From positions 1 through 25,229 of the forward strand of contig JBNMNB010000103.1 of assembly GCA_051270635.1 (NCBI GenBank): a stretch of 25,229 bases of DNA, in the 5' to 3' direction. Below are positions 3,574 to 17,984 of this stretch, piece by piece (positions within the stretch are counted from its first letter, which is position 1; each line of letters begins with the position of its first letter). The translations under genes were made by a program, and so were the position numbers. The DNA comes from Verrucomicrobiales bacterium. Its GTDB lineage: Bacteria; Verrucomicrobiota; Verrucomicrobiia; Verrucomicrobiales; DEV007. Below the pieces are notes generated by a model. It was not told where the DNA came from. It did no database searches and worked only from the letters and a program-made list of their open reading frames with translations.

Positions 3574-4677
3574 GTGTCACTCTGCGGTGCGGTGGCTGAT
3601 GATCTCTCCAACTCTCACGATTCCTTATCCGGCGGTGACTCACCCAGCGAAGTCAGCGATGACTATTGGATCGATCTCGCCAGGCACCCACACGATGCCT
3701 TTTTTAAGGAAATCTTCACCAATACGGAAGATGCCACCGCGTTTTTTCAATCTCACCTGCCTCCTGATGTAGTGGAATCTTGCGAATGGAGCACTCTCAA
3801 AGTGTTGCCTGGATCATTCGTGAAAAGTACGTTGCAGCAAGCGCATTCAGATCTTCTGTTCTCTGTGCAGAGCCGATCAAGAAATCCCTCTATAAGTGGG
3901 AATTCGGAGACTCGCGAATTTTTGCTTTATCTGTTGTTCGAGCACCAGAGCAATGTCGATCCCATCATGCCACTCCGGCTTCTCAGCTACATGGTACAGA
4001 TTTTTTCCGCTCATCATGAGCGACACGGCCTGCCTTTGCCACCAGTGATTGGATTCGTATTGCACCAGGGGCCGGACAAGTGGACGGTTTCGCAGCACTT
4101 TGATCAGCTATTCGATTTGCCGGATGATCCTGTAATGAAGCAGGCGCTGCTCCCGTTTCTGCCGAATTTTCAGCACGGACTTCTTGATCTAACTCAGTGC
4201 GATCCCGGGCAGGATGAGGATGTTCGTTCGGTGCGTATCGTCTTGCAACTCATGAAGCTTGCGCGCGAAAAGCGGCTTCTGGAGTTTTTTGACTGGCTCG
4301 TTATGGCCTGTCAATCATTCCTTGAGGATTTGCCATCCAGGCGGCTCGAAACTCTTCTACTCTACGCCCTGCACGCTGACAGCAATCTTGACATTGAACA
4401 GCTCGCCCGTAATGTTGAGAGCAGCAAACAACTGCAAAAACTCACTATGTCCGTAGCTGAAAAACTAAAAGCCGAGGGGAAAGCCGAAGGTAAGATCGAA
4501 GGGAAAACCGAAGGAAAGATCGAAGGTTTGTGGATTGGGCGTATTCAATTGCTTCAGACGTTGATGGGAAAAGAGGCCTCTACGGACGAAGACTTAACTG
4601 CACAGTCCATAGAGGAGCTTCAGGAAATGTTTGAGGTATTGCAGGTATCGTATGACGCGACAGTCAAGGGCAAGTAA
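3574..4677 (+). CDS. Rpn/YhgA-like PD-(D/E)xK recombination-promoting nuclease / putative transposase (Transposase_31 family) with a repetitive C-terminal tail
   Basis: N-terminal HPHDAFFKEIF matches the hallmark PHDxxFKxxF motif of Rpn family proteins. The C-terminus carries AEGKAEGKIEGKTEGKIEG repeats of the kind found in the variable tails of this family. The true start may lie downstream of 3574, because the N-terminal extension before the PHD motif is unusually long. Confidence 0.7.
   Translation: MSLCGAVADDLSNSHDSLSGGDSPSEVSDDYWIDLARHPHDAFFKEIFTNTEDATAFFQSHLPPDVVESCEWSTLKVLPGSFVKSTLQQAHSDLLFSVQSRSRNPSISGNSETREFLLYLLFEHQSNVDPIMPLRLLSYMVQIFSAHHERHGLPLPPVIGFVLHQGPDKWTVSQHFDQLFDLPDDPVMKQALLPFLPNFQHGLLDLTQCDPGQDEDVRSVRIVLQLMKLAREKRLLEFFDWLVMACQSFLEDLPSRRLETLLLYALHADSNLDIEQLARNVESSKQLQKLTMSVAEKLKAEGKAEGKIEGKTEGKIEGLWIGRIQLLQTLMGKEASTDEDLTAQSIEELQEMFEVLQVSYDATVKGK
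4473..4530 (+). repeat. Imperfect tandem 12-nt repeat (GAAGGnAAGATC-like) encoding (E-G-K-x)n in the Rpn C-terminal tail
   Basis: The sequence gccgaggggaaagccgaaggtaagatcgaagggaaaaccgaaggaaagatcgaaggt can be read directly in the window. It encodes AEGKAEGKIEGKTEGKIEG. Confidence 0.6.
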
Positions 4678-4685
4678 GCCCAAGG

Positions 4686-5312
4686 CTATTTCAATTGAAC
4701 AGCGCAGCCAGGGCAGTGCCGGGGATGGAACAGTTCCCCGAGAAATTTATCGCATGCCGGGCAGTGCCACCAAGTGTGGAGCGCGACCATGGCCATAAAT
4801 AAGAATGGGAGATTAATGAGAAGAAGGATGGAGAGGGAAAAGTGATCGACTGAGAAAGAAAGAGCTACCGAAGCGAGATTACTGAAATGGAACGCTAGTG
4901 CCAGTCTATGTTTCCATTTATTGCTCGCATGTCGGGCGTAGATCATATCTTGCTCGGCCTGCGACGTAACAGTGAATTTCTTTGCGCCGACCTGCAGTTG
5001 CTCCCCACATTGTGGGCAGAACTTGGGCTTAGAAATCTTGCCAATGTATTGGTGACATTGAGGGCAACTTGCCAGTCGCCGAGCGATGATTGCAAATCCA
5101 AGAATCGCCAGGGCTAGTCCTGCCATCAAGGGCCAAATGTTCGTTCCTTGATTGTTAGCGACAAGGAAAGTGAAGAATCCTCCTGCGACCCACAACAGGA
5201 GTAGAAAGCAAACTGCCAATACCCACTGCCGAAATCTCGATTTTCGCAATGCCTCTACATTGGCGAGAATACGCGCATCTTCGGCCGGATCAGATGTCGC
5301 GTTGATTGACAT
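4686..5312 (-). CDS. Membrane protein with tandem duplicated [2-TM + CxxC-x12-CxxC zinc-ribbon] modules; last gene of the flotillin/AAA cassette
   Basis: The protein is 208 aa. It contains two pairs of hydrophobic helices, each followed by a Cys4 ribbon with identical spacing: CPQC-x12-CPQC and CPAC-x12-CPGC. The start codon region overlaps the stop codon of the upstream giant gene by 23 nt (5290-5312) on the same strand, which suggests translational coupling. The gene is convergent with the Rpn gene, 8 nt apart. Confidence 0.6.
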   Translation of the reverse strand: MSINATSDPAEDARILANVEALRKSRFRQWVLAVCFLLLLWVAGGFFTFLVANNQGTNIWPLMAGLALAILGFAIIARRLASCPQCHQYIGKISKPKFCPQCGEQLQVGAKKFTVTSQAEQDMIYARHASNKWKHRLALAFHFSNLASVALSFSVDHFSLSILLLINLPFLFMAMVALHTWWHCPACDKFLGELFHPRHCPGCAVQLK

Positions 5313-8300
5313 CGGATTGGATGTCCACAGGAAGATCTTCGATTGTTTGCGGTTCTCGAGGAGCGCTGCCTTCGTGCACGGGGACGACTTTGATCTCCAC
5401 GTCTACCGGGACAGAGCGAAGATTTGCGATGATAGTCTCGAGTTTTTCAATAGTGACATCGGCCAGGGTGGCCGGTGCCCGTTGATGTGCGGCGGCATCA
5501 CTGAGAACGGTGCCAATTTGCTTCAAGTTCTCGGAGAATAGGCTTAGCTGACCGACAACTCTGGAGACGGGATCATTGTCGCCACCACCGCCGAGAATTT
5601 GATTTCGGCCGAAAGTTTCTTTGATCGAATTCCAGCGCGCAGTCCCAGTTTCATCCAGTGTGCTTTCGAGTTCCTTGAATTTGAGAAGGTTGGATTCGGC
5701 GCCAGTTGTCAGCGTTTGCGATTCGTTTTCGTAGTGGTCGACGATCACGCCCTCGACTTCCTCTGCGGTCATCATCGCGAGGATTTTCTCGGCGATGCGG
5801 TTCATGTTCCGATACGAACCCTGTAGTTTGAATGCAGGCTCGGTGCGGTAATTATCCTCCATCGCGGCAGATCGTATGTATTCAAGATTCACCCGCAGGA
5901 TGGTGTCGCGCACGCGCATCAGCTTCTCGACGATCGAGACCAATTCGTCGATTTCTTCCATGGCGTAGTTGCCCTCGAAATCGATACTTTCACGTGAACC
6001 GCTATCGGCAATTTTCATGATCGCGTAGACGTCCTGCTGGCTGCGGCTGGCGAGCTTGCTAAGCACTGGATTCGATGTGAGTGAGTTCTCGATATAGGAA
6101 TCTTTGAAGACACTGCCGTGACCGCCGATGATATCGCCGAGGTTGTAAGTGTCGGCGCGGTTCGCCAGCATGTCGGGAATCTGGAACTTGCCACCGCTCT
6201 CTGTGTAGGGATTACCAGCCATGACAACGGCGACTTTCTTGCCACGCAGGTCGTAGGTGCGCGGCTTGCCATTGTAGACGCCTTCGATCTTGCGCTGGGC
6301 GTCACACAGCGAGATAAATTTTTGCAAAAATTCTGGGTTACAGTGCTGGATATCATCCAGGTAGATCATCACATTGTCTCCCATCTCCAGCGAGAGATTC
6401 AACTTGTTCACTTCCTCACGCGCGCTGGCATTTGGGGCTTCGTCAGGATCGAGGGAGGTGACGTGGTGGCCAATGGCCGGGCCATTGATCTTCATAAAGG
6501 TGATGCCGAGCCGGTTGGCGACATACTCCATGAGCGTGGTTTTACCATAGCCAGGCGGGGAGATGAGCAAAAGCATGCCCATGCGATCGGTACGCGTGTT
6601 GACTCCGGCGGTTCCCAGTTGTTTCGCAAGGTTATCGCCGATCATCGGCAGATAGACGGAATCGAGAAGCCGATTGCGAACAAACGAAGACATGACGCGC
6701 GGCTTGAACTCGTCGAGACGCAGTGATGCGCGTCTATTCTCGAGCAATTCGCCCTTCAAGTGACCATAGGATTCGAACCTGGGCACGGATACTTCGTCGA
6801 AGTCACGCATCTTCTCCAGGAAGCCGTTGTAGTGCAGCGTGTAGGTGCCGCCTTCAGTCAATGCGTGCGATCCTGACATTCCTTCAATGTCTGCACGAGT
6901 GGCGATCTCGATGACGTCGTTGGAGCGGAATCCGCCTCGGAGTAAGTGCGCCGCGGCCTCATGCAGGACATCTTCGGAAATCGTGTTACTTTCGCCAGCC
7001 GTGAATCCGCGCAGCCAGTCGAGCATGATTTCGAAGCGCCCAGTTGGATCAGTTTCCAGAGCGCCCCAGGCTTCGTCGAATTTTTTTGCCAGGCGTTTTC
7101 CCGTGAGTGCCGTTTTGAAATGGTTGACGGCTTCTGCGGCTTCGAGAGAGACCACGGGATTGCCAGGCGACGTGAACTGGTGAAACAAGTAACGGGCTGC
7201 AGAACCAGTAATCGCCGGGCGGAAGGGGAGCCGTGGATGATTCTGCAGGAATGCCTCAATCACTTCGGTAAACTCACTGATACTAGCGTGATCATTGGTC
7301 GCTGTTGGGAATGATTCCCGCACCAGCCTGAACGATCGCAGTTTCGCCTCCAGCGTGTGCTTTGCTTCAATGTCATCCCATTGTTCCCAGAAGAGAAGTC
7401 CACAGGCGCGTGTGCCAGGAGCATAGCGCAGTAATCCGGCAGCCAGGTGAATCGGCAACAGGCTATCAAGCAGCAGTGCGCAGTCACGATCGTGAACTCC
7501 CTTGGTGTAGCCTTCGGAATAGCGAGGCCCCATGAATCGCTGAATGGACTCCAGCTGCTCGCTCTCCGGCTGTGCCGCGAAGTCGTCTACTGAGTCGGTG
7601 CCAAGCAATGGATCGCTGCCGGATTCCAGTGCGCGTAGAATCCGCCATGCTAGAAATTCAACACGATAAACGGCCTCATTTTCTGATACAGTTTCCTGCT
7701 CCCACACTTCATGGGTAGCGAGGAATGCGGGATCGGTGATCTTTTCGAAGAAATTCGTTCCTGCCAGGTGAAACAACATCGTATCATCACGGGGCACGAT
7801 CGACAGTTCCAGTTCCTGCGTATTGGTGGCGAATCGATGGTTGCCAAGCCGGATGACATTAGTGCCATCTTCGAACAATTCCTGTCTGTCTTTCAGCTGG
7901 CGGACAGCATCTTCACGCAGCGTCTTGAGGCGCGTCTGGACATCACCGGCTTTCACCGAATCTCCCAGTTCCTCGAGTTGCACGATAATGTTGCGCACCT
8001 TTTCGATCATCAAATCGGATGCGAGATACCCGTTGATGTCGTTGATGGTTTTGAAACCTTCCAGCCGATGACGAATACCGTTGAGCACGCGATCGGCGGA
8101 CTTTGCCAAAGTTCCTGCCCGGCGATTGCGGGCTTCCAGCAGCGACTGCTTGCGCGATTCGAAGGCGCTATAGACTTCTTCGCGCTTGGTCGTGAGTTGT
8201 TCGACGTATTCTTCGAACTCGCTGAACCTGCCTTCCAACTCTTCGAGCTGGATCATCGTCTTGGTAAGGAATTCGTCGCACTTCTCAGGTGCGCTGCAGA

Positions 8301-10425
8301 GATCCAGATAATTGATGACCGATTGGTTGAGAAGTTTCAACTGAGCGGTGAACTGAGCAGCGCCTTCCGTGCGTGACAGATTCTTCTTTCGATTCTTCAG
8401 TTCTACTTTAACCTGATTCAGAGTCGAATAGATGGAAGAAACGTCGTCAATAATCTTCGTCGTATGAGTGGCATCCTCGATCTTGAGGTTGCTGACGATG
8501 TCGATGAGCATTTCTAACTCAGCGCCCGCAGCATCCAGTTCCTTTTGCGTTTCAGTGGCCTCAGCAGCCTTGTTGATATCAGGAATGCGTTCCTGCTGGA
8601 CCGCGACCTTTTGCCGGTAGGGATCCAAGGCTTCGTCACGCAGCAGGAACTCGACACAGAGGTTCGACTCACGCTCACTTGCATCCTGGCTCTGTTCTTC
8701 GAGTGAATCGACCAACTTGAGATCAACGTAGCGCAGGTCGCGGAGCGAAATGATTTCGCCGCGCACAGTGCGGAGTTCGGCCAAGTTGTGCACGAACCCG
8801 AGGATATCATCGGGCCGTGTGTGCTCAACGGTTTTCAGGATTTTCGCGGTCTTATCGCGCACCCGGGCAGTCTCTTCGCGGGTGTTCTTGCGCACACGCT
8901 GGACTTTGTCGAATTCGTCGATCGCGGCCTGTGCGGCGCGATTGATCTCTGTCAGTGCACTCTTGAGGTCATGCGCTTCGTTGCGACCGGCCCAGAAGTA
9001 GGCGTCGCTGATGTCGCCGGTGATCTTGACTAAATCGACATAGAGATCGGCATAGCTGTCGTCTTTTCCGAGAAGAGTGAGGACTTGCTGGCACTCGGCC
9101 ATGCAGCGCACGATCTCTGCATTGCCCACCTTGTAGAGAAACGAATCCTGTTGCGTATCAGGCGCGAACGATTCTTCAATGTACGGCGTCTGCCATACTT
9201 GCAGCGCGTGATGCTTTTGCGGTTGTTCCTCATCGCGGAAATAAATCAGCTCGCCATTGGCGAACAGGCTGTAACCATTGCAGATGATCGGCGTCGACAC
9301 TGAACGCGCGATCAAATTGTAAGGCATAAGTATGTAGTCGCCGCTGATGCGATGGTAGAATACGTAGAGGAAATCCTCTCCGTTAGACGATGCGATGCGA
9401 CGGTCGAAGTACATATTCGAAAGGTCGTTTTCGAAGAGTTTGAATTCGCCGCTCTGCAGGTAGTAGCCGTTGGAGAAAATGATTCCGTGATCGTCGGGCA
9501 GGAGGACACACGAATGGCGAATGGAATCGATCCGCCGCACCTCGCGCGTCTTTTCATTGAAGACAAGAATACGTTCGTCCTTTTCCTGATACGGTTTGAT
9601 GTTGAGGATAATCAGGCTGCCGACGAAAGCGTAGAAAATTTCCGCATCGTCGAGCGTCTGGTCGACATGGTCAACCGGCTCGGTGTAGATGCCTTCGCCA
9701 GACTCCGTGTTGTCCTCCAGCTTGACCGTTAGATCACCACCGATGGTTTCGACGAAGATGCGGTCTTCAATTGAAATGTGTGGATGATCGCCCACGCGCT
9801 GCATGTCGCGGTGTGCGCGTTTCCATTCGAACTCACGCTGTGGTGGGAATGCGTATTCGTGATCGAAACGGTTGCCGAGATACTCAAGTGTTCCGTTCCC
9901 GTCGATGAGGAATTTGAACGTCTTGCGATCGTCGATCGACTTTCCGACTTGGAACGCCATGTAAAGGTTCGGCCCGATGACCATGAACTTTACGAAGACC
10001 GTCTCCCGATAGAACTTGTAGAGATATTTAAAATCTTCAGCGAAGGCGCTGTCTTCGACAATCGTATCGAACGGGCACTCGTGGAATGTATGCGACTGCG
10101 GATCAAACGAGTAGCCAGCAAAGACATCACTGATGTCAGTTGTCGACTTTAAGCCAAGCTGGACATTATATGCGAACAGAAACCGATTGGCTCCGATCGA
10201 GATCATGTCGCGCGGTGTGCAATTATTCTGCGTGGTGACGCGATCAGTGGCAATCAGCTGAGCTTCAATTGCTCCGAAAACGTCTTGGCGATCGGTATTG
10301 AGTTGATTCAGGCGCTGACGCAGATTCGTGCCGTGCTTCTCCATCCGCGCACGGATGATCTCATAGGCACCGCCTTCCAGCTGATCCTGCTGCTTAGGTG
10401 GTTCTTCCAGGATGACTTCAGACAT
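5290..10425 (-). CDS. Giant (1711 aa) multidomain protein with a single MoxR/AAA_5-type AAA+ ATPase core, a long central coiled coil, and N- and C-terminal domains of unknown function
   Basis: This is a single uninterrupted ORF. Walker A is LLLISPPGYGKTTL at about nt 6535-6575 (residue ~1292). Walker B plus the MoxR-like DEINRA-equivalent is VMIYLDDIQHCNPEFLQKF at about nt 6340-6372. Sensor-1 and the arginine-bearing segment VAVVMAGNPYTESGGKFQIPDMLANRADTYNL lie at about nt 6121-6215. This segment aligns with the MoxR/AAA_5 consensus fVlATqNPiEqEGTYpLPEAqLDRF. Residues ~480-840 (about nt 7900-9000) are heptad-rich coiled coil. A possible GGAGA ribosome-binding site sits 9 nt upstream of ATG 10425. 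Confidence 0.85.
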   Translation of the reverse strand: MSEVILEEPPKQQDQLEGGAYEIIRARMEKHGTNLRQRLNQLNTDRQDVFGAIEAQLIATDRVTTQNNCTPRDMISIGANRFLFAYNVQLGLKSTTDISDVFAGYSFDPQSHTFHECPFDTIVEDSAFAEDFKYLYKFYRETVFVKFMVIGPNLYMAFQVGKSIDDRKTFKFLIDGNGTLEYLGNRFDHEYAFPPQREFEWKRAHRDMQRVGDHPHISIEDRIFVETIGGDLTVKLEDNTESGEGIYTEPVDHVDQTLDDAEIFYAFVGSLIILNIKPYQEKDERILVFNEKTREVRRIDSIRHSCVLLPDDHGIIFSNGYYLQSGEFKLFENDLSNMYFDRRIASSNGEDFLYVFYHRISGDYILMPYNLIARSVSTPIICNGYSLFANGELIYFRDEEQPQKHHALQVWQTPYIEESFAPDTQQDSFLYKVGNAEIVRCMAECQQVLTLLGKDDSYADLYVDLVKITGDISDAYFWAGRNEAHDLKSALTEINRAAQAAIDEFDKVQRVRKNTREETARVRDKTAKILKTVEHTRPDDILGFVHNLAELRTVRGEIISLRDLRYVDLKLVDSLEEQSQDASERESNLCVEFLLRDEALDPYRQKVAVQQERIPDINKAAEATETQKELDAAGAELEMLIDIVSNLKIEDATHTTKIIDDVSSIYSTLNQVKVELKNRKKNLSRTEGAAQFTAQLKLLNQSVINYLDLCSAPEKCDEFLTKTMIQLEELEGRFSEFEEYVEQLTTKREEVYSAFESRKQSLLEARNRRAGTLAKSADRVLNGIRHRLEGFKTINDINGYLASDLMIEKVRNIIVQLEELGDSVKAGDVQTRLKTLREDAVRQLKDRQELFEDGTNVIRLGNHRFATNTQELELSIVPRDDTMLFHLAGTNFFEKITDPAFLATHEVWEQETVSENEAVYRVEFLAWRILRALESGSDPLLGTDSVDDFAAQPESEQLESIQRFMGPRYSEGYTKGVHDRDCALLLDSLLPIHLAAGLLRYAPGTRACGLLFWEQWDDIEAKHTLEAKLRSFRLVRESFPTATNDHASISEFTEVIEAFLQNHPRLPFRPAITGSAARYLFHQFTSPGNPVVSLEAAEAVNHFKTALTGKRLAKKFDEAWGALETDPTGRFEIMLDWLRGFTAGESNTISEDVLHEAAAHLLRGGFRSNDVIEIATRADIEGMSGSHALTEGGTYTLHYNGFLEKMRDFDEVSVPRFESYGHLKGELLENRRASLRLDEFKPRVMSSFVRNRLLDSVYLPMIGDNLAKQLGTAGVNTRTDRMGMLLLISPPGYGKTTLMEYVANRLGITFMKINGPAIGHHVTSLDPDEAPNASAREEVNKLNLSLEMGDNVMIYLDDIQHCNPEFLQKFISLCDAQRKIEGVYNGKPRTYDLRGKKVAVVMAGNPYTESGGKFQIPDMLANRADTYNLGDIIGGHGSVFKDSYIENSLTSNPVLSKLASRSQQDVYAIMKIADSGSRESIDFEGNYAMEEIDELVSIVEKLMRVRDTILRVNLEYIRSAAMEDNYRTEPAFKLQGSYRNMNRIAEKILAMMTAEEVEGVIVDHYENESQTLTTGAESNLLKFKELESTLDETGTARWNSIKETFGRNQILGGGGDNDPVSRVVGQLSLFSENLKQIGTVLSDAAAHQRAPATLADVTIEKLETIIANLRSVPVDVEIKVVPVHEGSAPREPQTIEDLPVDIQSDVNQRDI

Positions 10426-10552: not shown

Positions 10553-12643
10553 TCACTTTTTAGTGACTGCATCGATGATTTCGCCAGCATTGGTTCCGGC
10601 CACGCCGAATCGTTCTGCTGCACCACGTAGTCCGCGTAGCTGCGCCGCATCGTCATCGCCAGCACTGCCGATCATTTGCCCCAGCAAGGCGGACACGGTC
10701 AGGTTTTTGAGATCCTCACTGGTGATGCCGAACTGATCGATCCAATTCGAGAACTGGGAACGAAAATAGTCAGGATCGCCGTTGAAGAACGTCTCTTTGA
10801 CATCCTGCAGGGCACGACTGTTGCCAATCATGCGATCAACCGATTTGCCCGTAGAAATGGCACCGGTGATCTTATCGAAGAATGCGATGTCGCCACCGAC
10901 AATGTCGATTTTCGCCGTGCGCAGGGCTTCGCCCACCACACTTGCCTGCTCGGCCGCGATGTCGCGATGCACATTGATCTGTGCCAGATCGACCTGCTTC
11001 TCTTTGTCGAGACGCAGTTTGAATTCTTCGTGCGACTGACCAGCTTCGTTAAAGAGCTTCATCGCTGCTGCTTTCTTGTCGATGCCTTCTGCCTCGGCCA
11101 TTGCCTTGAGACGTGCGACTTCCGCTTCGATCGAACCCTGCTTCTCGGCAGCCTCGGCCTTAGCGATCATTACCTGGGCTTCACCCAAACCAATGGCGGC
11201 TGATTCTGCAGCGACACCTTCAGCGAGCGACTTCTTCGCAGCGGCCTGCTTGGTAGAGGCTTCCTGCTCGGCTTCGGAAGCAATGAGGATTTCTTCAGCA
11301 TGCAGCTCAGCAGATTTTTTCGAAGCTTCAGCAGCTTTGACGCGCTCATAGAGCAACTGATCAGCGTGCAATTGAGCAGCTTCCTTGTCGGCTTCCGCTT
11401 GTTTGAGCACTTTCACCAGCACTTCCTGTGCATCCTTTTCGGCAAGGGTTATCGCGACCTGCTTCTCACGGTCGGCACCTGCGAACGCTTCCGTATCGAG
11501 GATTTTCTGCTGCTCGATCACCACTGTCTTCTCGACTGCGACACGTTCTTTGATGACGTCCTGAATGTTCTTCTTCTCGATCTCGACTGCTTTATCTCGC
11601 TCGATCCCTTTCAGCGATGTCAAGCGATCGCGCTCGATCACCTCCAGCATGCGATCGCGCTCGACCCGCTCAAGCTCGACCGCATCAGTGCGATCTTTGT
11701 TGCGCTCAGCGACCAGCACTTGACGGAATTTATTCTGCTCGGCGACTTCGATTTCTTCCTCAGCAGCAATGCGTGCCTGCTCAGATCTCTGACGCTGTTC
11801 CTGGCGAACTTTTTCGGCCTCGGCCTGCTCGCGTGACTGCACGGTTTCGATTTCACGGCGCTGTTTCGCTTCTGCTTCAGCCAGTTGCCGCTCCAATTCG
11901 AGTATCGCTTCCCTTGTCTCTACGTCTTGTTGTTTGATCACGCGTTCCTTGTCTCGCTGAATCTGGTTCGCCAACTTGGCCTGTGCTGCCGTGCGGTCAG
12001 TGATCTTCTTAATACCTTCTGCATCGAGAATATTGTCAGGATCCAGGGAATCGAGCGGTGTTTGCTCCAGGTGGTCGATCGAGGCATCGTCGAGAATGAA
12101 TCCGTTCAAGTTGGTGCCAATGATCTTGATGATCTCGTCGCGGAAGGTGTCGCGCTCGTCGTAAAGTTCAACGAATTCGAATCGTTTACCGACAGTCTTC
12201 AGGGCCTCGGAAAATTTGGCATCGAACAAGGCTTGAATCTCCTTCTCGTTGGATGCGCGGTCACAGCCGATCAATTGGGCCACATGCTCGACGTCCTTGG
12301 CTGTTTTATTAACTCGCACGAAGAAGACGACCTTGATATCGGCTCGCATGTTATCTTTACAGATCAGTCCATTGTTGGCGCTGCGATCGATGATGATGCG
12401 CTTGACGGAGATGTCCATGATCTCAACACGGTGAATGATTGGAAAAACGAACATGCCGGAGAAATTGACACGCGTTCCTCCCATTCCATTTCTGATGAGC
12501 GCACGCCCTTGATCGACCTTGCGCCAGCAGCGCATTGCGATCACCGCAATGAAAAGGACAAAACCAATCAAGAGCGGGATCAGAAACATTCCCAATCCCT
12601 TAAAGAGTTCTGTCCCTGCTTGTGCCAACAATGATTCATTCAT
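10553..12643 (-). CDS. Flotillin-like SPFH/Band-7 protein (YqiK/FloT-like) with extended EA-rich coiled coil
   Basis: The protein has an N-terminal TM helix (FLIPLLIGFVLFIAVIAM) and an SPFH domain (ICKDNMRADIKVVFFVRV...). It then has a long charged coiled coil with flotillin-type EA repeats (AEAEAKQRREIETVQSREQAEAEKVRQEQRQR...; KAEAAEKQGSIEAEVARLKAMAEAEG). At 696 aa it is longer than E. coli YqiK or B. subtilis FloT. Confidence 0.9.
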   Translation of the reverse strand: MNESLLAQAGTELFKGLGMFLIPLLIGFVLFIAVIAMRCWRKVDQGRALIRNGMGGTRVNFSGMFVFPIIHRVEIMDISVKRIIIDRSANNGLICKDNMRADIKVVFFVRVNKTAKDVEHVAQLIGCDRASNEKEIQALFDAKFSEALKTVGKRFEFVELYDERDTFRDEIIKIIGTNLNGFILDDASIDHLEQTPLDSLDPDNILDAEGIKKITDRTAAQAKLANQIQRDKERVIKQQDVETREAILELERQLAEAEAKQRREIETVQSREQAEAEKVRQEQRQRSEQARIAAEEEIEVAEQNKFRQVLVAERNKDRTDAVELERVERDRMLEVIERDRLTSLKGIERDKAVEIEKKNIQDVIKERVAVEKTVVIEQQKILDTEAFAGADREKQVAITLAEKDAQEVLVKVLKQAEADKEAAQLHADQLLYERVKAAEASKKSAELHAEEILIASEAEQEASTKQAAAKKSLAEGVAAESAAIGLGEAQVMIAKAEAAEKQGSIEAEVARLKAMAEAEGIDKKAAAMKLFNEAGQSHEEFKLRLDKEKQVDLAQINVHRDIAAEQASVVGEALRTAKIDIVGGDIAFFDKITGAISTGKSVDRMIGNSRALQDVKETFFNGDPDYFRSQFSNWIDQFGITSEDLKNLTVSALLGQMIGSAGDDDAAQLRGLRGAAERFGVAGTNAGEIIDAVTKK

Positions 12644-12694: not shown

Positions 12695-13336
12695 TTAAAG
12701 TGCTCGGACGAAATAGGCGCCGGTCTTTTCGTCTTCATCAATGACGAGACACTCGTCACCTTTCTTGAGCCGTGCATTGCCTTCGCGAACTCGGACATTG
12801 ATGAGTAGGGGAGCCCCGCGCATTTCGATTTCCACTTGCCCCAGGTCCGTGGAAACACTGCCGCTGCGGACGATGCCGGTGCGGCCAATGATGGGTTCTT
12901 GAGTTTCTTTGTCCGCGTCTTTCATTTTCTGCAAGACTCTGGCCATGGGCGCAGTGACCGCCTTGGCGATGAATAAGCTCAATACGAAACTGGCAAAGCC
13001 GACCAGCACCGCAGCGACAACACTGCCAGCTCCAGTGAAGAAGAAATTTCCAACAATTGACAGAACCCACATGCTGATAGCCATGATGCTGATCACGATC
13101 ATAACGGGCACTTGGTCAACGTTCACAAATCTCAACAAGGCCGCGAAAATGCTTCCGCCGCCGTGGCCGGAGAGGTCCCCATCTGCATCGATTTCCGTGT
13201 CGGCATCCAGATCGAATTCAAATCCATCACCGAAAACTCCGATACTGGCGACGATCCAGTAGATGACTACCAAGCATAGCAACACCGTCATCGGCAGATT
13301 ATACCAGGCAGTTGCTTCGTGGAATAGTTCAGTCAT
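12695..13336 (-). CDS. NfeD-like / YqiJ-like (DUF1449) inner-membrane protein with C-terminal OB-fold; the flotillin partner protein
   Basis: The layout matches YqiJ: an N-terminal TM helix, an acidic D/H-rich loop (FDLDADTEIDADGDLSGHGGGS), two more TM helices, and a C-terminal beta-rich OB-like segment (GRTGIVRSGSVSTDLGQVEIEMRGAPLLINVRVREGNARLKKGDECLV). It is immediately upstream of the flotillin gene on the same strand, 51 nt away. Confidence 0.7.
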   Translation of the reverse strand: MTELFHEATAWYNLPMTVLLCLVVIYWIVASIGVFGDGFEFDLDADTEIDADGDLSGHGGGSIFAALLRFVNVDQVPVMIVISIMAISMWVLSIVGNFFFTGAGSVVAAVLVGFASFVLSLFIAKAVTAPMARVLQKMKDADKETQEPIIGRTGIVRSGSVSTDLGQVEIEMRGAPLLINVRVREGNARLKKGDECLVIDEDEKTGAYFVRAL

Positions 13337-13514: not shown

Positions 13515-14000
13515 ATGAGCGAATCCCACGAAGTATTAAAAGAGGCGTTTGAGAAAACCAGTCCTAAGGAAATTGCCGCTGAGTTGGCTGTTTCTTTATC
13601 GCTTGTCTATAAATGGGCACAGCCGAACACGGAATTGGGGAGCGGATCTCGTAATCCGCTCGATCGTGTGCATGAGCTGATGCGCTTGACCCAGGATCCG
13701 CACATCATCCAGTGGCTGTGTCAGCAGGCAGGCGGGTACTTTGTGCGAAACCCTGAAAGCAACTGCAAAGAAGGTTTCGAGGTCGTGCCGGCGACCAATG
13801 AGATCGTCCAGCAGTTCGCCGATCTCCTTTCGATCATCACCAAGGCATCACTGGATAATACGATTACGCCCGCCGAATCGGCACAGATCCGCAAATGCTG
13901 GGATGAGCTCAAGGCCTATACCGAAGGATTTGTCACTTGCTGTGAAGAGGGCGATTTTGAGAATATCGACCTGAAGCGGGCAGCGCACTCCTCCAGTTGA
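13515..14000 (+). CDS. Small helix-turn-helix DNA-binding regulatory protein (phage CII-like style HTH), transcribed divergently from the cassette
   Basis: The protein is 161 aa. The HTH-like segment is PKEIAAELAVSLSLVYKWAQP. The C-terminal part is acidic and Cys-containing (CWDELKAYTEGFVTCCEEGDFE). I cannot assign a family confidently. Confidence 0.55.
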   Translation: MSESHEVLKEAFEKTSPKEIAAELAVSLSLVYKWAQPNTELGSGSRNPLDRVHELMRLTQDPHIIQWLCQQAGGYFVRNPESNCKEGFEVVPATNEIVQQFADLLSIITKASLDNTITPAESAQIRKCWDELKAYTEGFVTCCEEGDFENIDLKRAAHSSS

Positions 14001-14020: not shown

Positions 14021-14830
14021 CTAAGCAGACAGCTCGCTGTTTTCGGTCATCCAGTCCTTCAACAAAGGAAGGGCATCAAGCAACTCAGCGCGCAGAACAT
14101 CGCGTAGTTCCTGGCTCAGGATATCGCGAGAATCAGTATTCGCAGGCGTCTGCTCGAGCTGGATACGCAATCCAAGAACGACGGGTGATCTTCCAGCGCG
14201 AGTCAAAGCTTCGCTTATTTCATCCTTGTGCGGCTCTAACAGGCGCTTTGGCACTTTAAAGATTCGCGCAACTTGCACGTAGGCTTCCGCCACTTTTCCT
14301 AAAGGGACATGCAGCCCAGCTTCAATGAGGTGCTCAAGAAATGGACGCACTTGAGTGTCTTGCTCAAACATGGCATCATGCAGTGCGCGTTGGTAGCGTT
14401 GACCAGCTTTCCGGTAAGCTTCCCGTGCTTCCACCACTTTATCGTTAGACCATACTTGGCGCAGTGCGCGACGCAGTTGGCGTTGCTCGGCCATGGAAAG
14501 CTTATCCAGCTCGGTGCGCAGGACTTCCCGCCGCCGGGCTAGTGAACTGGTGGTCGTGGACTGAGCCTCGATCTGAGAAGCGCCGGGCAGTTCGCTGTAT
14601 TCGGGCAAGCCGCCCAGTTCAGGAACGCTGGAAAGATCTGGCATATCATTGCCACCTGGCATGTCGCCTGGCATATCGGGCATTCCTGAGCCGAATGGCG
14701 GAGGCATGCTGTCGTCCAGCGGGTTCTGAGCATAGGCCAAAGTCAGACATCCGCCTGCTGCTAAAGTCAGCAGGGCAAGCGGCAATGGCAGACGGGGAGT
14801 GGAGGAAAGGAGTGGAATCCAGAGTTGCAC
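14021..14830 (-). CDS. Putative periplasmic protein with Met/Pro-rich linker and LTxxQ-like (Spy/CpxP-style) helical C-terminal region
   Basis: The ORF is open to 14986, but a signal-peptide-like segment (LPLPLALLTLAAGGCLTLAYA-QNP) appears only about 55 codons in. The longer version would overlap the SD-supported start of the divergent gene at 14932. I therefore propose the GTG start at 14830 (VQLWIPLL...), with the start remaining uncertain. Motifs include MPDMPGDMPGGNDMPD and LSMAEQRQLRRALRQ. Confidence 0.45.
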   Translation of the reverse strand: MQLWIPLLSSTPRLPLPLALLTLAAGGCLTLAYAQNPLDDSMPPPFGSGMPDMPGDMPGGNDMPDLSSVPELGGLPEYSELPGASQIEAQSTTTSSLARRREVLRTELDKLSMAEQRQLRRALRQVWSNDKVVEAREAYRKAGQRYQRALHDAMFEQDTQVRPFLEHLIEAGLHVPLGKVAEAYVQVARIFKVPKRLLEPHKDEISEALTRAGRSPVVLGLRIQLEQTPANTDSRDILSQELRDVLRAELLDALPLLKDWMTENSELSA

Positions 14831-14931
14831 ACGGGATAGAACCACAGGATTGCGAAACTGTCGCGGTCGATCTGAATTTGGTTGAATCTTGCGTTCAACG
14901 TCCACTAAGGCTAGGGGAGGGATACCTACAT

Positions 14932-15768
14932 ATGTCAGATTCAAATGTGCCAGCCGACTTGAGTCAGGACGACTCACCAGAATCACCTGCCGAAACCTTC
15001 GGCAGCAGTGCTGAAGTGAAGGCGGATTCCTCGCCGCCAGCCAAGAAGTCGAAAGAGAATCCGTTGATGAACATTTTGATCAATGTTCTGATTCCTGTAG
15101 TGGCACTCAGTGCTTTAAGTAAGGACGGTGGTAAACCTTGGCACATTGGCCCGCTGTGGGGGATGATCGTAGCCGTCACATTTCCAGTGGTTTATGGAAT
15201 CTGGGACTTGATTCGCAGTCGCAAAGTCAACTTCTTCTCGGTAGTTGGGATCATCGGAGTTCTGTTGACTGGAGGAATCACGCTTTATGTATGGAACGCT
15301 GACGGGACTGTGAAAGAGAGTGCGGCTTTCCTTTTTGCCATAAAAGAGGCGACGATCCCGATTGTGTTCGGAATCCTCATCTTGGGTTCGCACTTCACCG
15401 GCAAGCCCCTGATGCGGTTGTTTCTATACAATCCTGATTTGTTTGACGTCGGCAGGATTGAGAAGGCGATTGCCAAGCGCAATGAGGAGACCGACTATCA
15501 AAAGGCGCTGTTGAAAACGACCTTCATCATGGCTGGATCATTTTTCTTGAGCGCCTGTTTGAACTACGGGCTGGCGATGTATTTCTTGAAAGGAGCAGAT
15601 AGTACCAAAGAAGCATACAATGCCGCGATTGCAAAACTGACCGGCTGGGGATATCTGGTCATCGGCCTTCCCTGCATGATCATTTGGTTTATTGCCGGCT
15701 GGTTACTGGTGCGTCAGTTGAGGAAGCTGACCGGCCTGGAGTTTGAAGATCTGACTGTTCCTCGCTGA
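14932..15768 (+). CDS. Multi-pass inner-membrane protein (about 6-7 TM), family unassigned
   Basis: ATG 14932 is preceded by GGAGG 12 nt upstream. The acidic N-terminus is followed by several hydrophobic helices (ILINVLIPVVALSAL; IGPLWGMIVAVTFPVVYGIW; FFSVVGIIGVLLTGGITLYVW; ...). The upstream part of the ORF (14464-14931) is antisense to the neighbouring gene and is treated as non-coding. Confidence 0.6.
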   Translation: MSDSNVPADLSQDDSPESPAETFGSSAEVKADSSPPAKKSKENPLMNILINVLIPVVALSALSKDGGKPWHIGPLWGMIVAVTFPVVYGIWDLIRSRKVNFFSVVGIIGVLLTGGITLYVWNADGTVKESAAFLFAIKEATIPIVFGILILGSHFTGKPLMRLFLYNPDLFDVGRIEKAIAKRNEETDYQKALLKTTFIMAGSFFLSACLNYGLAMYFLKGADSTKEAYNAAIAKLTGWGYLVIGLPCMIIWFIAGWLLVRQLRKLTGLEFEDLTVPR

Positions 15769-15797
15769 GTTTCCTAAATTAAATGGGAGTGCCAATA

Positions 15798-17984
15798 ATG
15801 AAGCCCTACCGCATCGGAGTCTCGTTCATTGCAGGGCTTGCTCTTTGGACATTATCGGTGCTTCAGGCAATAGGGGATGAGACCCATTACCGTGTCGAGG
15901 GCATGGCCAGTTCCAGCGCCGCGCAGCTTGAAGCCGTGCGCCTTCTGGTGCCGTGGGTTTCCGTTTCGACCACTACTGGGCAAATGCAGGCGCGGGTCGT
16001 TTTTCGCAATGTCAGTCGAACTCCAGCGCAGCCCTTTGGACTAATGGGCAAGGACGATTATCAGCTGTTATTGGGCAATGGAAAACGGCTGTCGTCGTCG
16101 TCGAGTTCTGATTCGCTGGCGATTGTCATTCCTGCCGAAGGCCTCGCTCCAACGCAATCGAATAGCGGAGTGCTCACTTTTGACCTGCCTGCTGAGGTGA
16201 CGAAATTCGGTGACTCGGCTTCGCTCCAGGTATCGCGGTTTCAGCCGGTTGCTGTCCAGTTGGTGCCTGGTCGGGTTTTTTCACCTCCGCCGCTGGGAGT
16301 GCAACTACCAGTGCAGCAGGTGCTGCGCAGCTCGCACGATTCGATGTCGCTGGTCGCATTGGAAGTCGATTCCGCGATGATCACTGCTGAGGGAAAATTG
16401 GTGCTGTCGATAGGCTTTCGCAATGTTGGTCGCGCCAATCTGAATGTCAGCACACGTCTCTCTGGCAAGGATGCACGTCTGGCCGACGGTGAGCTGAATG
16501 TGCACGCGCCCGATGCCATTTCTCCCGCACTGACGACCAGTATCATTCCCGGCACTGGCGTCTTGGAGGCCGGGACACCGCATAGTGGAACAGTCAGATT
16601 TTCGATTTCACATCCCGTCGCAGCTGAGCAGTGGCAATTTTTTTATCCTGGCTATCAGCGCATGGGAGCACAGTGGAATGCGCAGAAGAACCGCTTTTTG
16701 GTGAAGGTGTTAGACGATCCTGCTGTTCCCCCTGTCAATGCGTCGGGAGCCGGCGGTGAACTTGCTGCCGATGAACGGCGATTCAGAAAAATTGATGCTC
16801 TACTGGGACGTCTGAACAAGAATATCGCAGCTGGAAATACTAGCGCTTACCTTGCTGCACTGCCGCCTCACCTGCGGGAATCGCATGCTCGCCTACTGCG
16901 TGAGCATATCCGAGTGGGCGCGCGTGACCTTGAGTATCGACTTCCTCCGCTGCAAAAGTTCCAGCCTTCTTCCGATGGGGTGGTTCGAAACGTCCAGCTC
17001 TCGCTACGCTATCAACTGAATGACGGAGCGCAGAATAGGCCGATGGTGGCCTCAGCCGTAGCCAGCTTTGCCGGAGACAGGGGGCAATGGAGGATGGTCG
17101 ATTGTCGTTTTGTAAGAGCTGCACCATTCTGGTTGCTCGGCTACGTCGACGTCCATAAGACAGACCATTTTACGATATTTTACCGCGCAGGCACCGCGTC
17201 CGCAGATCGCATTGGCAAGGCTGGACGCCAACTTGAGAAAGCATTCCGCAATCTGAAGCGTAAAGGGCTCCCGGTCGAAGATCGCAGCCTTGCCATTTTT
17301 CTCGATAAGCCCGAGGATTTTACGACGGTCGCGGGAATGGATGCCGATCGATTCGATGGCGCGGCCATGCTGCATTATGAAAATGTCGACGGTACTTTTG
17401 AAGTGCGGAATCGCGTGATCTACATCAATGACGCACGCTTTGTTACGGGGCAACGCCTGTGGGGAATGCAGGACAGGCAGGCAACGATCACTCATGAACT
17501 AGTGCACCTTTACTTGAGCAAAGTGACCCGGCCGTGGATTCCCTCCTGGGTCACCGAGGGCGTAGCGGTTCATTTTGCCGGACAACACAATTCGTGGTCA
17601 CGCCGAGCACTGCGCAAGAATCCCTACTTCGAAAAATTGACGCTGACAGAATTAAGCAAGCAGCACACGCTATCGGAAGGAAGTGCCGACGCGAATGCCA
17701 CGCAAGCAGGATATCTATTGTCAGGAGAAGCCTTTGCGATTCTCGACAAGAAAGGCAAACAACGGAAGCTACTCGAATTCTATCGCAGTTACGCCGGATT
17801 TACATTCGAGAGTATCCGCGCAGCACTATCTTCTCAAGGTGCGAAGTTGCCTGCTGGACAGGCTCCCAGTATCGCAACTGCCGGCCCAGTCCTGACAGAC
17901 ATCCTTCTGCTACAACACTTCGGTACCGACATCAAGACTCTTGACTCTGAAGTCAAGGCATCGGCTCGTAAGCGTGGATTCTAG
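15798..17984 (+). CDS. Secreted protein with HExxH zinc-metallopeptidase motif (DUF1570-like)
   Basis: The signal peptide is MKPYRIGVSFIAGLALWTLSVLQA. A GGGAG ribosome-binding site lies 8 nt before ATG 15798; the alternative ATG is 15783. QATITHELVHLYL contains HExxH, with a downstream EGVAVHF glutamate. Otherwise the protein is of unknown function. Confidence 0.65.
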   Translation: MKPYRIGVSFIAGLALWTLSVLQAIGDETHYRVEGMASSSAAQLEAVRLLVPWVSVSTTTGQMQARVVFRNVSRTPAQPFGLMGKDDYQLLLGNGKRLSSSSSSDSLAIVIPAEGLAPTQSNSGVLTFDLPAEVTKFGDSASLQVSRFQPVAVQLVPGRVFSPPPLGVQLPVQQVLRSSHDSMSLVALEVDSAMITAEGKLVLSIGFRNVGRANLNVSTRLSGKDARLADGELNVHAPDAISPALTTSIIPGTGVLEAGTPHSGTVRFSISHPVAAEQWQFFYPGYQRMGAQWNAQKNRFLVKVLDDPAVPPVNASGAGGELAADERRFRKIDALLGRLNKNIAAGNTSAYLAALPPHLRESHARLLREHIRVGARDLEYRLPPLQKFQPSSDGVVRNVQLSLRYQLNDGAQNRPMVASAVASFAGDRGQWRMVDCRFVRAAPFWLLGYVDVHKTDHFTIFYRAGTASADRIGKAGRQLEKAFRNLKRKGLPVEDRSLAIFLDKPEDFTTVAGMDADRFDGAAMLHYENVDGTFEVRNRVIYINDARFVTGQRLWGMQDRQATITHELVHLYLSKVTRPWIPSWVTEGVAVHFAGQHNSWSRRALRKNPYFEKLTLTELSKQHTLSEGSADANATQAGYLLSGEAFAILDKKGKQRKLLEFYRSYAGFTFESIRAALSSQGAKLPAGQAPSIATAGPVLTDILLLQHFGTDIKTLDSEVKASARKRGF

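Follow-up and report, generated by a model that had tools for sequence, protein, structure and literature searches.

Flotillins and the NfeD proteins that partner them occur widely in bacteria, and the mechanism by which they act is debated. SPFH proteins, eukaryotic as well as bacterial, form large membrane-attached cages, and we know of no mechanism by which these cages are opened or recycled. In the ESCRT-III/Vps4 system, a possible functional analogue of the locus described here, a membrane-remodelling polymer is served by a dedicated AAA+ recycler. Among SPFH proteins, which build membrane-attached cages, there is a bacterial precedent for the pairing of such a scaffold with a hexameric AAA+ enzyme: HflK/C surrounds the AAA+ protease FtsH (PMC11260169). 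FtsH is a membrane-anchored protease of the classical AAA clade housed in a periplasm-facing cage. Ravi et al. (2024, mSystems; PMC11237479) described a flotillin/YqiJ/AAA+ operon associated with PSP and placed the AAA+ protein among PspA partners, suggesting ATP-dependent membrane remodelling.

The window (the whole stretch of DNA that was analysed, 25,229 nucleotides) contains a form of this operon on the minus strand, on which all features given below with coordinates are located. In this cassette a YqiJ(NfeD-like) gene comes first, the gene of a long flotillin (YqiK-type) second and the AAA+ ATPase gene third. The first gene (12695..13336) encodes a 213-aa YqiJ/NfeD-like membrane protein that matched Pfam YqiJ_N with 24.3 bits against a cut-off of 23 (E 3.8e-5), and the direct BLASTP match to E. 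coli YqiJ was marginal (E 0.049). The second gene (10553..12643) encodes a 696-aa YqiK-type flotillin with a transmembrane segment, an SPFH domain and a long coiled coil, which aligned with E. coli YqiK at 30% identity (BLASTP, E 4e-47); Pfam Band_7 was undetected in this protein even at E 10. The three gene families, their order and the domain description of the ATPase all match the published operon and nothing essential differs. Since the CesT/Tir-PspA dyad is absent from the 25-kb window, the locus corresponds to the 'abbreviated' version of the PspA/CesT-flotillin-YqiJ-AAA+ envelope-stress operon, a form without the dyad that is part of the published description (PMC11237479). To that description the present analysis adds the AAA+ fold class, the spectrin-like helical region, two deviant motifs that are invariant (SPPGYGKT and DD) and the frequency of linkage. 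In contrast to FtsH, the ATPase encoded here is a soluble protein of another clade that lacks a protease domain and is partnered by a cytoplasm-facing YqiK-type flotillin.

In order to evaluate the linkage, gene order was compared in 80 related loci. In 68 of the 80, the ATPase gene was immediately preceded by a flotillin gene in the same orientation, equivalent to 68 of the 71 informative loci, defined as those with more than 2.5 kb of DNA upstream of the ATPase gene. Only three informative loci (L026, L037 and L040) had no adjoining flotillin gene, a finding counted against the scaffold-remodelling model discussed below. A YqiJ-like gene preceded the flotillin gene in at least 52 loci. Loci from Bacteroidota carried added genes, PspA in 17 and CesT_Tir_1 in 13, and a PspA/polyamine cluster is added to the cassette of pQBR103. 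No conserved neighbour family beyond YqiJ, flotillin, PspA and CesT was found in the 80 loci, nor any conserved gene downstream of the ATPase gene. These results establish the genetic linkage and strongly support a functional link to the neighbouring flotillin.

The ATPase gene (5290..10425) encodes a protein of 1711 aa (194 kDa, pI 5.0) from an ATG start, and no transmembrane segment was predicted. The architecture had been regarded as unusual and the N-terminal part as without a nameable motif. It is not a one-off, and both the N-terminal and the helical parts have names: the protein matches a defined family, DUF3686+DUF7902+AAA in Pfam terms, which bears the NCBI name 'DNA repair ATPase' and is present in the operon of Ravi et al. 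(PMC11237479). Pfam DUF3686 (PF12458) matched residues 35-477 with full profile coverage (601.2 bits against a cut-off of 25, E 1.3e-180) and DUF7902 (PF25472) matched residues 598-681 of the helical region (93.3 bits against a cut-off of 26, E 1e-26). More than 3300 homologues were found with query coverage of 97-100%, and 444 clusters at 50% identity scored E<=1e-30, results indicating that the architecture is not due to chance. The protein is collinear over its full length with other family members, and alignments with full-length homologues of 1600-1900 aa span all 1200 N-terminal residues at identities down to 27%. Family hits were distributed over at least 585 species in Verrucomicrobiota, Planctomycetota, Bacteroidota, Desulfobacterota and Clostridia, with other members in Pseudomonas, Proteus, Vibrio, Halomonas, Streptomyces and Deinococcus. 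The protein is a real, non-unique member of a widespread bacterial giant-ATPase family that is experimentally unstudied. Literature searches for DUF3686/PF12458 or 'DNA repair ATPase' together with flotillin found no paper, and those for MoxR with SPFH/flotillin, or for bacterial flotillin with AAA+, found none treating the DUF3686 ATPase family.

The domain order outside the AAA+ module was established from Pfam, conservation and AF2 models of two overlapping halves of the monomer, modelled separately. A long N-terminal helix (residues 15-50; 10276..10383) precedes an all-beta, beta-propeller-like domain of approximately 26 strands (residues 56-412; 9190..10260) that forms the core of DUF3686. 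The helical region that follows (residues 429-850; 7876..9141) consists of tandem spectrin-like three-helix-bundle repeats and includes DUF7902 (8383-8634); matches in this putative arm were to spectrin repeats and propellers. The suggested parallel between the helical stretch and the flotillin coiled coil was not borne out, there being no sequence similarity (best E 0.6). One JGI name suggested that the helical region is PspA-like, a reading that is not supported, as no match to Pfam PspA_IM30 was obtained even at E 10. The middle region (residues 860-1240; 6706..7848) was modelled as a small beta element, an alpha-helical domain, a second beta element and a long connecting helix; it had no Pfam match even at E 10, and its residues 900-1200 showed the lowest conservation in the protein. 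The chain terminates with helices and an acidic tail (residues 1621-1711; 5293..5565), the tail being poorly conserved and of low confidence with pLDDT below 50 from approximately residue 1670.

The single AAA+ module anticipated near the C-terminus was confirmed, with Pfam AAA_5 aligning across the alpha/beta core. The predicted extent of residues 1270-1430 was too small: the module occupies approximately residues 1250-1620, comprising the core (1250-1435; 6121..6678; Pfam, AF2 and alignment) and a helical lid with C-terminal helices (1436-1620; 5566..6120; AF2 and invariant columns) that includes the invariant sensor-2 motif QGSYRNM (1535-1541; 5803-5823). The three motifs originally quoted are all present in the predicted order, except that Walker A reads SPPGYGKT (1289-1296; 6538-6561) and not GPPGYGKT, the initial Ser being invariant across the DUF3686 ATPase family. 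Walker B was located at VMIYLDD (1352-1358; 6352-6372); since IYLDDIQHCNPEF begins at residue 1354, the motif is of the form hhhhDD with D1357/D1358. Asp in place of the usual catalytic Glu is counted against the scaffold-remodelling model. A pre-sensor-1 beta-hairpin (1379-1392; 6250-6291) is followed by the segment of residues 1398-1427 (6145-6234) containing sensor-1 N1405 and the Arg finger R1423, with VAVVMAGNPYTESGGKFQIPDMLANRADTY beginning at residue 1398. With regard to the helix-2 and pre-sensor-2 inserts of MoxR proteins, the AF2 model showed a long extra helix at residues 1489-1521 before sensor 2 and, linking beta2 to alpha2, a conserved loop of 18 residues in which no hairpin was predicted. 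K1295, D1357/D1358, N1405, R1423 and R1539 were invariant among 30 sequences of 31-53% identity, and the catalytic residues, as judged from the alignment, are intact. The C-terminal motifs SPPGYGKT, LDDIQH, AGNP and NRAD were likewise family-invariant in alignments of 30-92 sequences and present in this protein. The putative pore-loop segment GH.VTSLDP contains no aromatic residue, which makes peptide threading doubtful.

The fold of the module is that of the PS-I hairpin / PS-II insert clade, with known MoxR proteins as its closest structures, and the nearest folds were CbbQ/NorQ, dynein and midasin. AAA_5, the Pfam model of the MoxR-class CbbQ/NorQ/GvpN group, was the only one to span the whole alpha/beta core (23-26 bits). 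The MoxR/RavA type originally proposed is supported in part, by fold and by AAA_5; membership by sequence is weak, with no match to AAA_3 (MoxR) and an hhalign probability of 10% against E. coli RavA. Stand-alone MoxR proteins are five to six times shorter than the ATPase, which also differs from the class in its Ser-first Walker A, in DD rather than DE in Walker B and in having no VWA/MIDAS partner gene. The lack of a VWA partner had been foreseen, and none was conserved in the 80 related loci or matched among the scanned ORFs of the window. Dynein and midasin contain six concatenated modules, whereas the ATPase has one per chain. No PF00004 match over the whole domain with a second region of homology, of the kind that defines the classical AAA clade (Cdc48/Vps4/FtsH), was found. 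Classification by sequence search of the PDB, with the protein or with a 70-sequence profile, was abandoned since matches were limited to the P-loop of p97 and RuvB, from which the module cannot be classified.

The position of the ATPase gene, almost always right after the flotillin gene pair, indicates that scaffold remodelling is the most likely function and not DNA repair. With moderate confidence we propose that a ring of the DUF3686-DUF7902-AAA+ protein remodels the flotillin/YqiJ membrane scaffold under envelope stress. The soluble ATPase would form a ring by way of its single MoxR/dynein-class module, probably with six subunits and a mass of ~1.16 MDa. Each subunit would extend an arm of spectrin-like three-helix repeats with the beta-propeller-like domain at its tip. 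The geometry of ring and arms is putative, the AF2 models being of two separate halves of a monomer. The cytoplasmic flotillin/YqiJ scaffold may be the docking site of the propellers and arms, as may PspA in operons that encode it. Hydrolysis of ATP in the ring would then drive mechanical remodelling of the scaffold at the inner membrane face, presumably triggered by envelope stress, the outcome of which could be assembly, opening, disassembly or extraction of a client. It is doubtful, though conceivable, that six propeller-tipped arms grip a cytoplasmic flotillin cage while the ring, at or near the narrow end, opens, disassembles or pulls the cage in the manner of dynein or midasin. On that reading, the ATPase would provide the first example of an ATP-driven machine dedicated to an SPFH/flotillin scaffold, and bacterial flotillins would gain a regulated assembly cycle analogous to that of ESCRT-III/Vps4. 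A giant AAA+ motor with intact catalytic residues, genetically locked to one flotillin subfamily in many phyla, is a clear candidate for the missing ATP-dependent step of SPFH cages.

The names given to the family by Pfam ('ATPase involved in DNA repair') and NCBI imply instead an ATPase of DNA repair or branch migration. The alignment of E. coli RuvB by hhalign at a probability of 95%, restricted to 73 columns from Walker A to Walker B, and the RuvB chains among the top Foldseek matches by E-value agree with these names; the closer resemblance of the first half of the AAA+ core to RuvB than to RavA in sequence is counted against scaffold remodelling. The RuvB scores were below the cut-offs (NCBIfam RuvB, 23.6 bits against 282; RuvB_N, 23.7-26.2 against 27) and no repair genes, ruvA and ruvC included, were found near the ATPase gene in the window or the 80 related loci. 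A repair function is hardly credible, and 'DNA repair ATPase' is probably a widely propagated but wrong annotation. The ring could otherwise act as an unfoldase or disaggregase on unfolded or damaged membrane-associated proteins gathered by a flotillin/NfeD microdomain, and not on the scaffold itself, and so provide the step that requires ATP. This we consider unlikely, given the pore loop devoid of aromatic residues, the lack of a protease partner gene and the closest folds (CbbQ/NorQ, dynein, midasin), which remodel specific partners and are not general unfoldases.

PspA belongs to the ESCRT-III superfamily and is co-encoded in the extended versions of the operon. The ATPase might be a Vps4-like regulator of PspA polymers for which flotillin and YqiJ are merely the membrane platform. 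Co-occurrence with PspA and the CesT/Tir chaperone in Bacteroidota and on pQBR103, and the place of the AAA+ protein among PspA partners (PMC11237479), are consistent with this role, which we regard as rather improbable. A role in anti-phage defence or another conflict, where the ATPase would set off disruption of the membrane by the flotillin, is suggested by the YhgA-like transposase and CII-like regulator flanking the cassette in the window, by family members on megaplasmids and by small endonuclease genes inserted inside cassettes. However, no meaningful PADLOC match was obtained, contexts are varied and mostly housekeeping, the cassette is vertically widespread in phyla with identity tracking taxonomy, and neither an effector nuclease nor a toxin or sensor domain was found in the conserved genes, all of which makes this function very unlikely.

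A phage origin of the cassette was considered and rejected, PHROGs giving generic ATPase matches only. A promoter/terminator scan of the cassette was uninformative, with fewer sites than in shuffled sequence. In addition to the genes of the published operon (PMC11237479), the window carries a downstream ORF (4686..5312) encoding a membrane protein with two zinc ribbons by Pfam. Its candidacy as a conserved fourth component was rejected since no homologue was found in the 80 related loci; the ORF is lineage-specific and outside the conserved cassette. It overlaps the stop codon of the ATPase gene by 23 nt and is possibly co-transcribed with the cassette.

At 5290..10425 the minus strand carries an ATG-initiated gene for a protein of 1711 residues with a computed mass of 194 kDa and pI of 5.0, in which no transmembrane segment was predicted. 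A hexamer, if formed, would have a computed mass of 1.16 MDa. The three AAA+ motifs of the original prediction are all present in the order proposed, with the correction that Walker A (residues 1289-1296) reads SPPGYGKT and not GPPGYGKT. The other two are IYLDDIQHCNPEF, beginning at residue 1354, and VAVVMAGNPYTESGGKFQIPDMLANRADTY, beginning at residue 1398. The first residue of Walker A is an invariant serine across the family and, with the DD Walker B, represents a family-specific deviation. An alignment of 30 sequences (31-53% identity) shows no variation at Lys1295, Asp1357/Asp1358, Asn1405, Arg1423 or Arg1539; thus, judged from sequence, the AAA+ module is very probably an active ATPase.

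The regions originally described as having no nameable motif belong to defined families. DUF3686 (PF12458) matched residues 35-477 (E 1.3e-180, 601 bits) and DUF7902 (PF25472) matched residues 598-681 (E 1e-26). Searches of NCBIfam, PADLOC and PHROGs gave nothing specific. More than 3300 homologous proteins were retrieved at E≤1e-5, the best 120 of which cover 97-100% of the query and carry the NCBI name 'DNA repair ATPase'. Residues 1-1200 alone retrieved 1390 clusters from a library of 50%-identity representatives, 444 of them at E≤1e-30. Collinearity among full-length members (1600-1900 residues) extends from end to end down to approximately 27% identity, and conservation is high over the entire chain save residues 900-1200, with its peak at the AAA+ module. 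A pattern scan covering a single genome for each GTDB species verified at least 585 relatives, those listed including Verrucomicrobiota, Planctomycetota, Bacteroidota, Desulfobacterota and Clostridia. Plasmid records searched with tblastn added Pseudomonas fluorescens pQBR103, Proteus, Vibrio, Photobacterium, Halomonas, Streptomyces, Nonomuraea, Deinococcus and Hymenobacter. For all its striking structure, the protein is an ordinary member of a large Pfam-defined family that was earlier described only computationally. No experimental paper on the ATPase was found in the literature searched; as the coverage is incomplete, this counts solely as absence of evidence.

The domain anatomy was obtained from two AlphaFold2 models built on 45-sequence alignments, covering residues 1-880 (mean pLDDT 85.9) and 860-1711 (mean pLDDT 85.4, pTM 0.72). 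A disordered N-terminus (residues 1-14) and a long helix (15-50) precede an all-beta domain of approximately 26 strands (56-412), followed by helices, three of them 49-58 residues long (429-850). A small beta element with an alpha-helical domain (about 860-1165) and a beta element with a connecting helix (about 1177-1235) lead to the AAA+ alpha/beta core (about 1250-1435), a helical lid with extension (1436-1670) and, after residue 1670, a low-confidence tail.

Sequence methods detect only the P-loop half of the AAA+ module, and its Pfam matches are weak throughout: PF00004 matches only the first half, AAA_5 aligns over positions 2-125 of 139 barely over the cut-off, and RuvB_N falls under its cut-off. 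Matches to p97 and RuvB in PDB searches with phmmer and hmmsearch span approximately 35-60 residues. Alignment of the family profile with hhalign gave a probability of 95% over 73 columns for E. coli RuvB, 90% for ClpX and only 10% for RavA. Comparison of the modeled structure was clearer. Further dynein chains scored 12.8-13.5, next ClpB, ClpA and Hsp101 12.3-12.8, Lon, HslU and the majority of classical AAA proteins approximately 11-12 (NVL 12.6), and ClpX and RuvB-like proteins 10.3-10.6. Foldseek E-values were alike for RuvB, NorQ/CbbQ, ClpB and MCM, and the top target-normalized TM-scores (0.49-0.56) were those of NorQ/CbbQ. A beta-hairpin predicted between alpha3 and the sensor-1 strand (1379-1392) and an extra long helix (1489-1521) ahead of the invariant QGSYRNM motif would fit the pre-sensor-1 and pre-sensor-2 insert clade; a helix-2 hairpin was not predicted by AlphaFold2. 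Thus, the proposed MoxR-like character is borne out as a matter of fold class, the AAA_5 or CbbQ-NorQ-dynein-midasin group. It does not extend to the MoxR family proper, from which the protein is set apart by its sequence profile, its size and the lack of a VWA partner.

Two genes lie upstream in the same orientation. One encodes a flotillin-like protein of 696 residues (10553-12643) that shares 30% identity with E. coli YqiK (E 4e-47), the other a YqiJ_N-positive membrane protein of 213 residues identified with Pfam (12695-13336). The gap is 51 nt between these two genes and 127 nt between the flotillin and ATPase genes. The Pfam Band_7/SPFH models miss this flotillin-like protein even at E 10, and likewise its Hymenobacter orthologue; the long (~690 residues) flotillin subfamily seems to lie beyond the reach of the usual domain model. 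Conservation is strong over residues 540-600 of the protein.

Comparison of 80 related loci by tblastn and ORF clustering placed a flotillin homologue directly upstream of the ATPase gene, on the same strand, in 68. Nine of the other 12 have less than 1.6 kb of upstream sequence and only L026, L037 and L040 truly have no flotillin within the available DNA, giving linkage in 68 of 71 informative loci. In at least 52 loci the flotillin gene is itself preceded by a YqiJ-like gene; downstream of the ATPase gene, no conserved family was found in the 80. Linkage to the YqiK-type flotillin and NfeD-like partner is near-obligate. Several lineages lengthen the cassette on its upstream side. Bacteroidota add CesT_Tir_1 (E 3e-53) and PspA_IM30 (E 7e-39), next to which an HTH-S24 (LexA-like) regulator is divergently transcribed, and the pQBR103 cassette is preceded by PspA, rhomboid, DUF2491, DUF350, DUF1190 and glutathionylspermidine-synthase-like genes. 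The Streptomyces order is small ORF, flotillin, ATPase. The pQBR103 locus (L085, 85.4-104.3 kb), in which a small ORF, the SPFH protein and the giant ATPase follow the synthase-like gene, has two PSP-associated operon types fused on a megaplasmid.

The same arrangement was described by Ravi et al. (2024, mSystems, PMC11237479) as four-element operons that include CesT/Tir-PspA and a YqiJ/YuaF-type 3TM protein. The authors also noted abbreviated operons, more widely distributed, in which PspA is lacking, and read these as assemblies for sub-membrane dynamics. The window is one case of the abbreviated form. To their account the present analysis adds a fold class for the motor, the recognition of the arm as spectrin-like, the motifs that are deviant yet invariant, and the quantified synteny.

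SPFH proteins form membrane-attached cages in published structures; that of flotillin measures 32 nm in width by 22 nm in height and has a narrow end constricted by C-terminal residues, and HflK/C encloses FtsH hexamers (PMC11260169). Four features, namely a ring-forming AAA+ module of the remodeler class that is soluble and has its catalytic residues intact, the spectrin-like arms, the propeller and the flotillin linkage, lead us to propose a hexameric motor. The domain identities and the linkage are established here; the oligomeric state, docking partner and direction of action are inferred. The long arms and terminal propellers would attach to the flotillin/YqiJ scaffold, as well as to any PspA present, and the ATP cycle may assemble, open or dismantle the scaffold, or extract its clients, in envelope stress. 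The chances appear about even that the flotillin scaffold itself is the target; among the competing, less likely readings are an unfoldase of clients and a PspA-specific analogue of Vps4.

A true role in DNA repair is the reading implied by the database name, which appears to stem from the Pfam title. No DNA-binding domain and no repair neighbors were found, the RuvB similarity is limited to the P-loop region, and nothing observed here backs the name. It is highly likely that the ATPase works with the flotillin system and not in DNA repair, and the family is a promising candidate route to how bacterial flotillin scaffolds are regulated. A conflict system is a further, improbable reading of the cassette.

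Between the flotillin and ATPase genes, unrelated lineages repeatedly carry small endonuclease-like genes that stand alone (PDDEXK_3 or DUF559/Vsr-like; L005:9516-9935, L042:9536-9958, with equivalents in L003, L008, L024, L028 and L041). This suggests that the gap is a favored insertion site of selfish elements. Phospholipase D (HKD)-like genes lie near the cassette in four loci (L052:16559-17263, L055:9259-10113, L032:15459-15935, L066:1314-1799), in agreement with the remark of Ravi et al. on PLD genes in some such operons (PMC11237479).

In the window, a minus-strand ORF for a 208-residue zinc-ribbon membrane protein (4686-5312) overlaps the stop codon end of the ATPase gene by 23 nt and is internally duplicated, with a CxxC...CxxC zinc ribbon ending each half. 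None of the 80 loci has a homologue of this ORF, which is therefore a lineage-specific add-on; zinc-ribbon proteins, B. subtilis YdjG/YdjL, occur in other PspA/band-7 operons (Ravi et al., PMC11237479). A YhgA-like gene (Transposase_31, PD-(D/E)XK; 3574-4677, plus strand) is convergent with the cassette, between it and pyrG. Divergent from the yqiJ-like gene is a CII-like (Phage_CP76/phrog_101) regulator (13515-14000, plus strand), with homologues of 50-72% identity at the same position in L002, L004, L009 and L020; this protein and the HTH-S24 proteins of Bacteroidota may regulate the cassette locally. Farther downstream, beyond the CII-like gene, plus-strand ORFs of 434 (14464-15768) and 733 residues (15783-17984) had no Pfam or PHROG match, and the former is overlapped by an antisense ORF of 321 residues (14021-14986).
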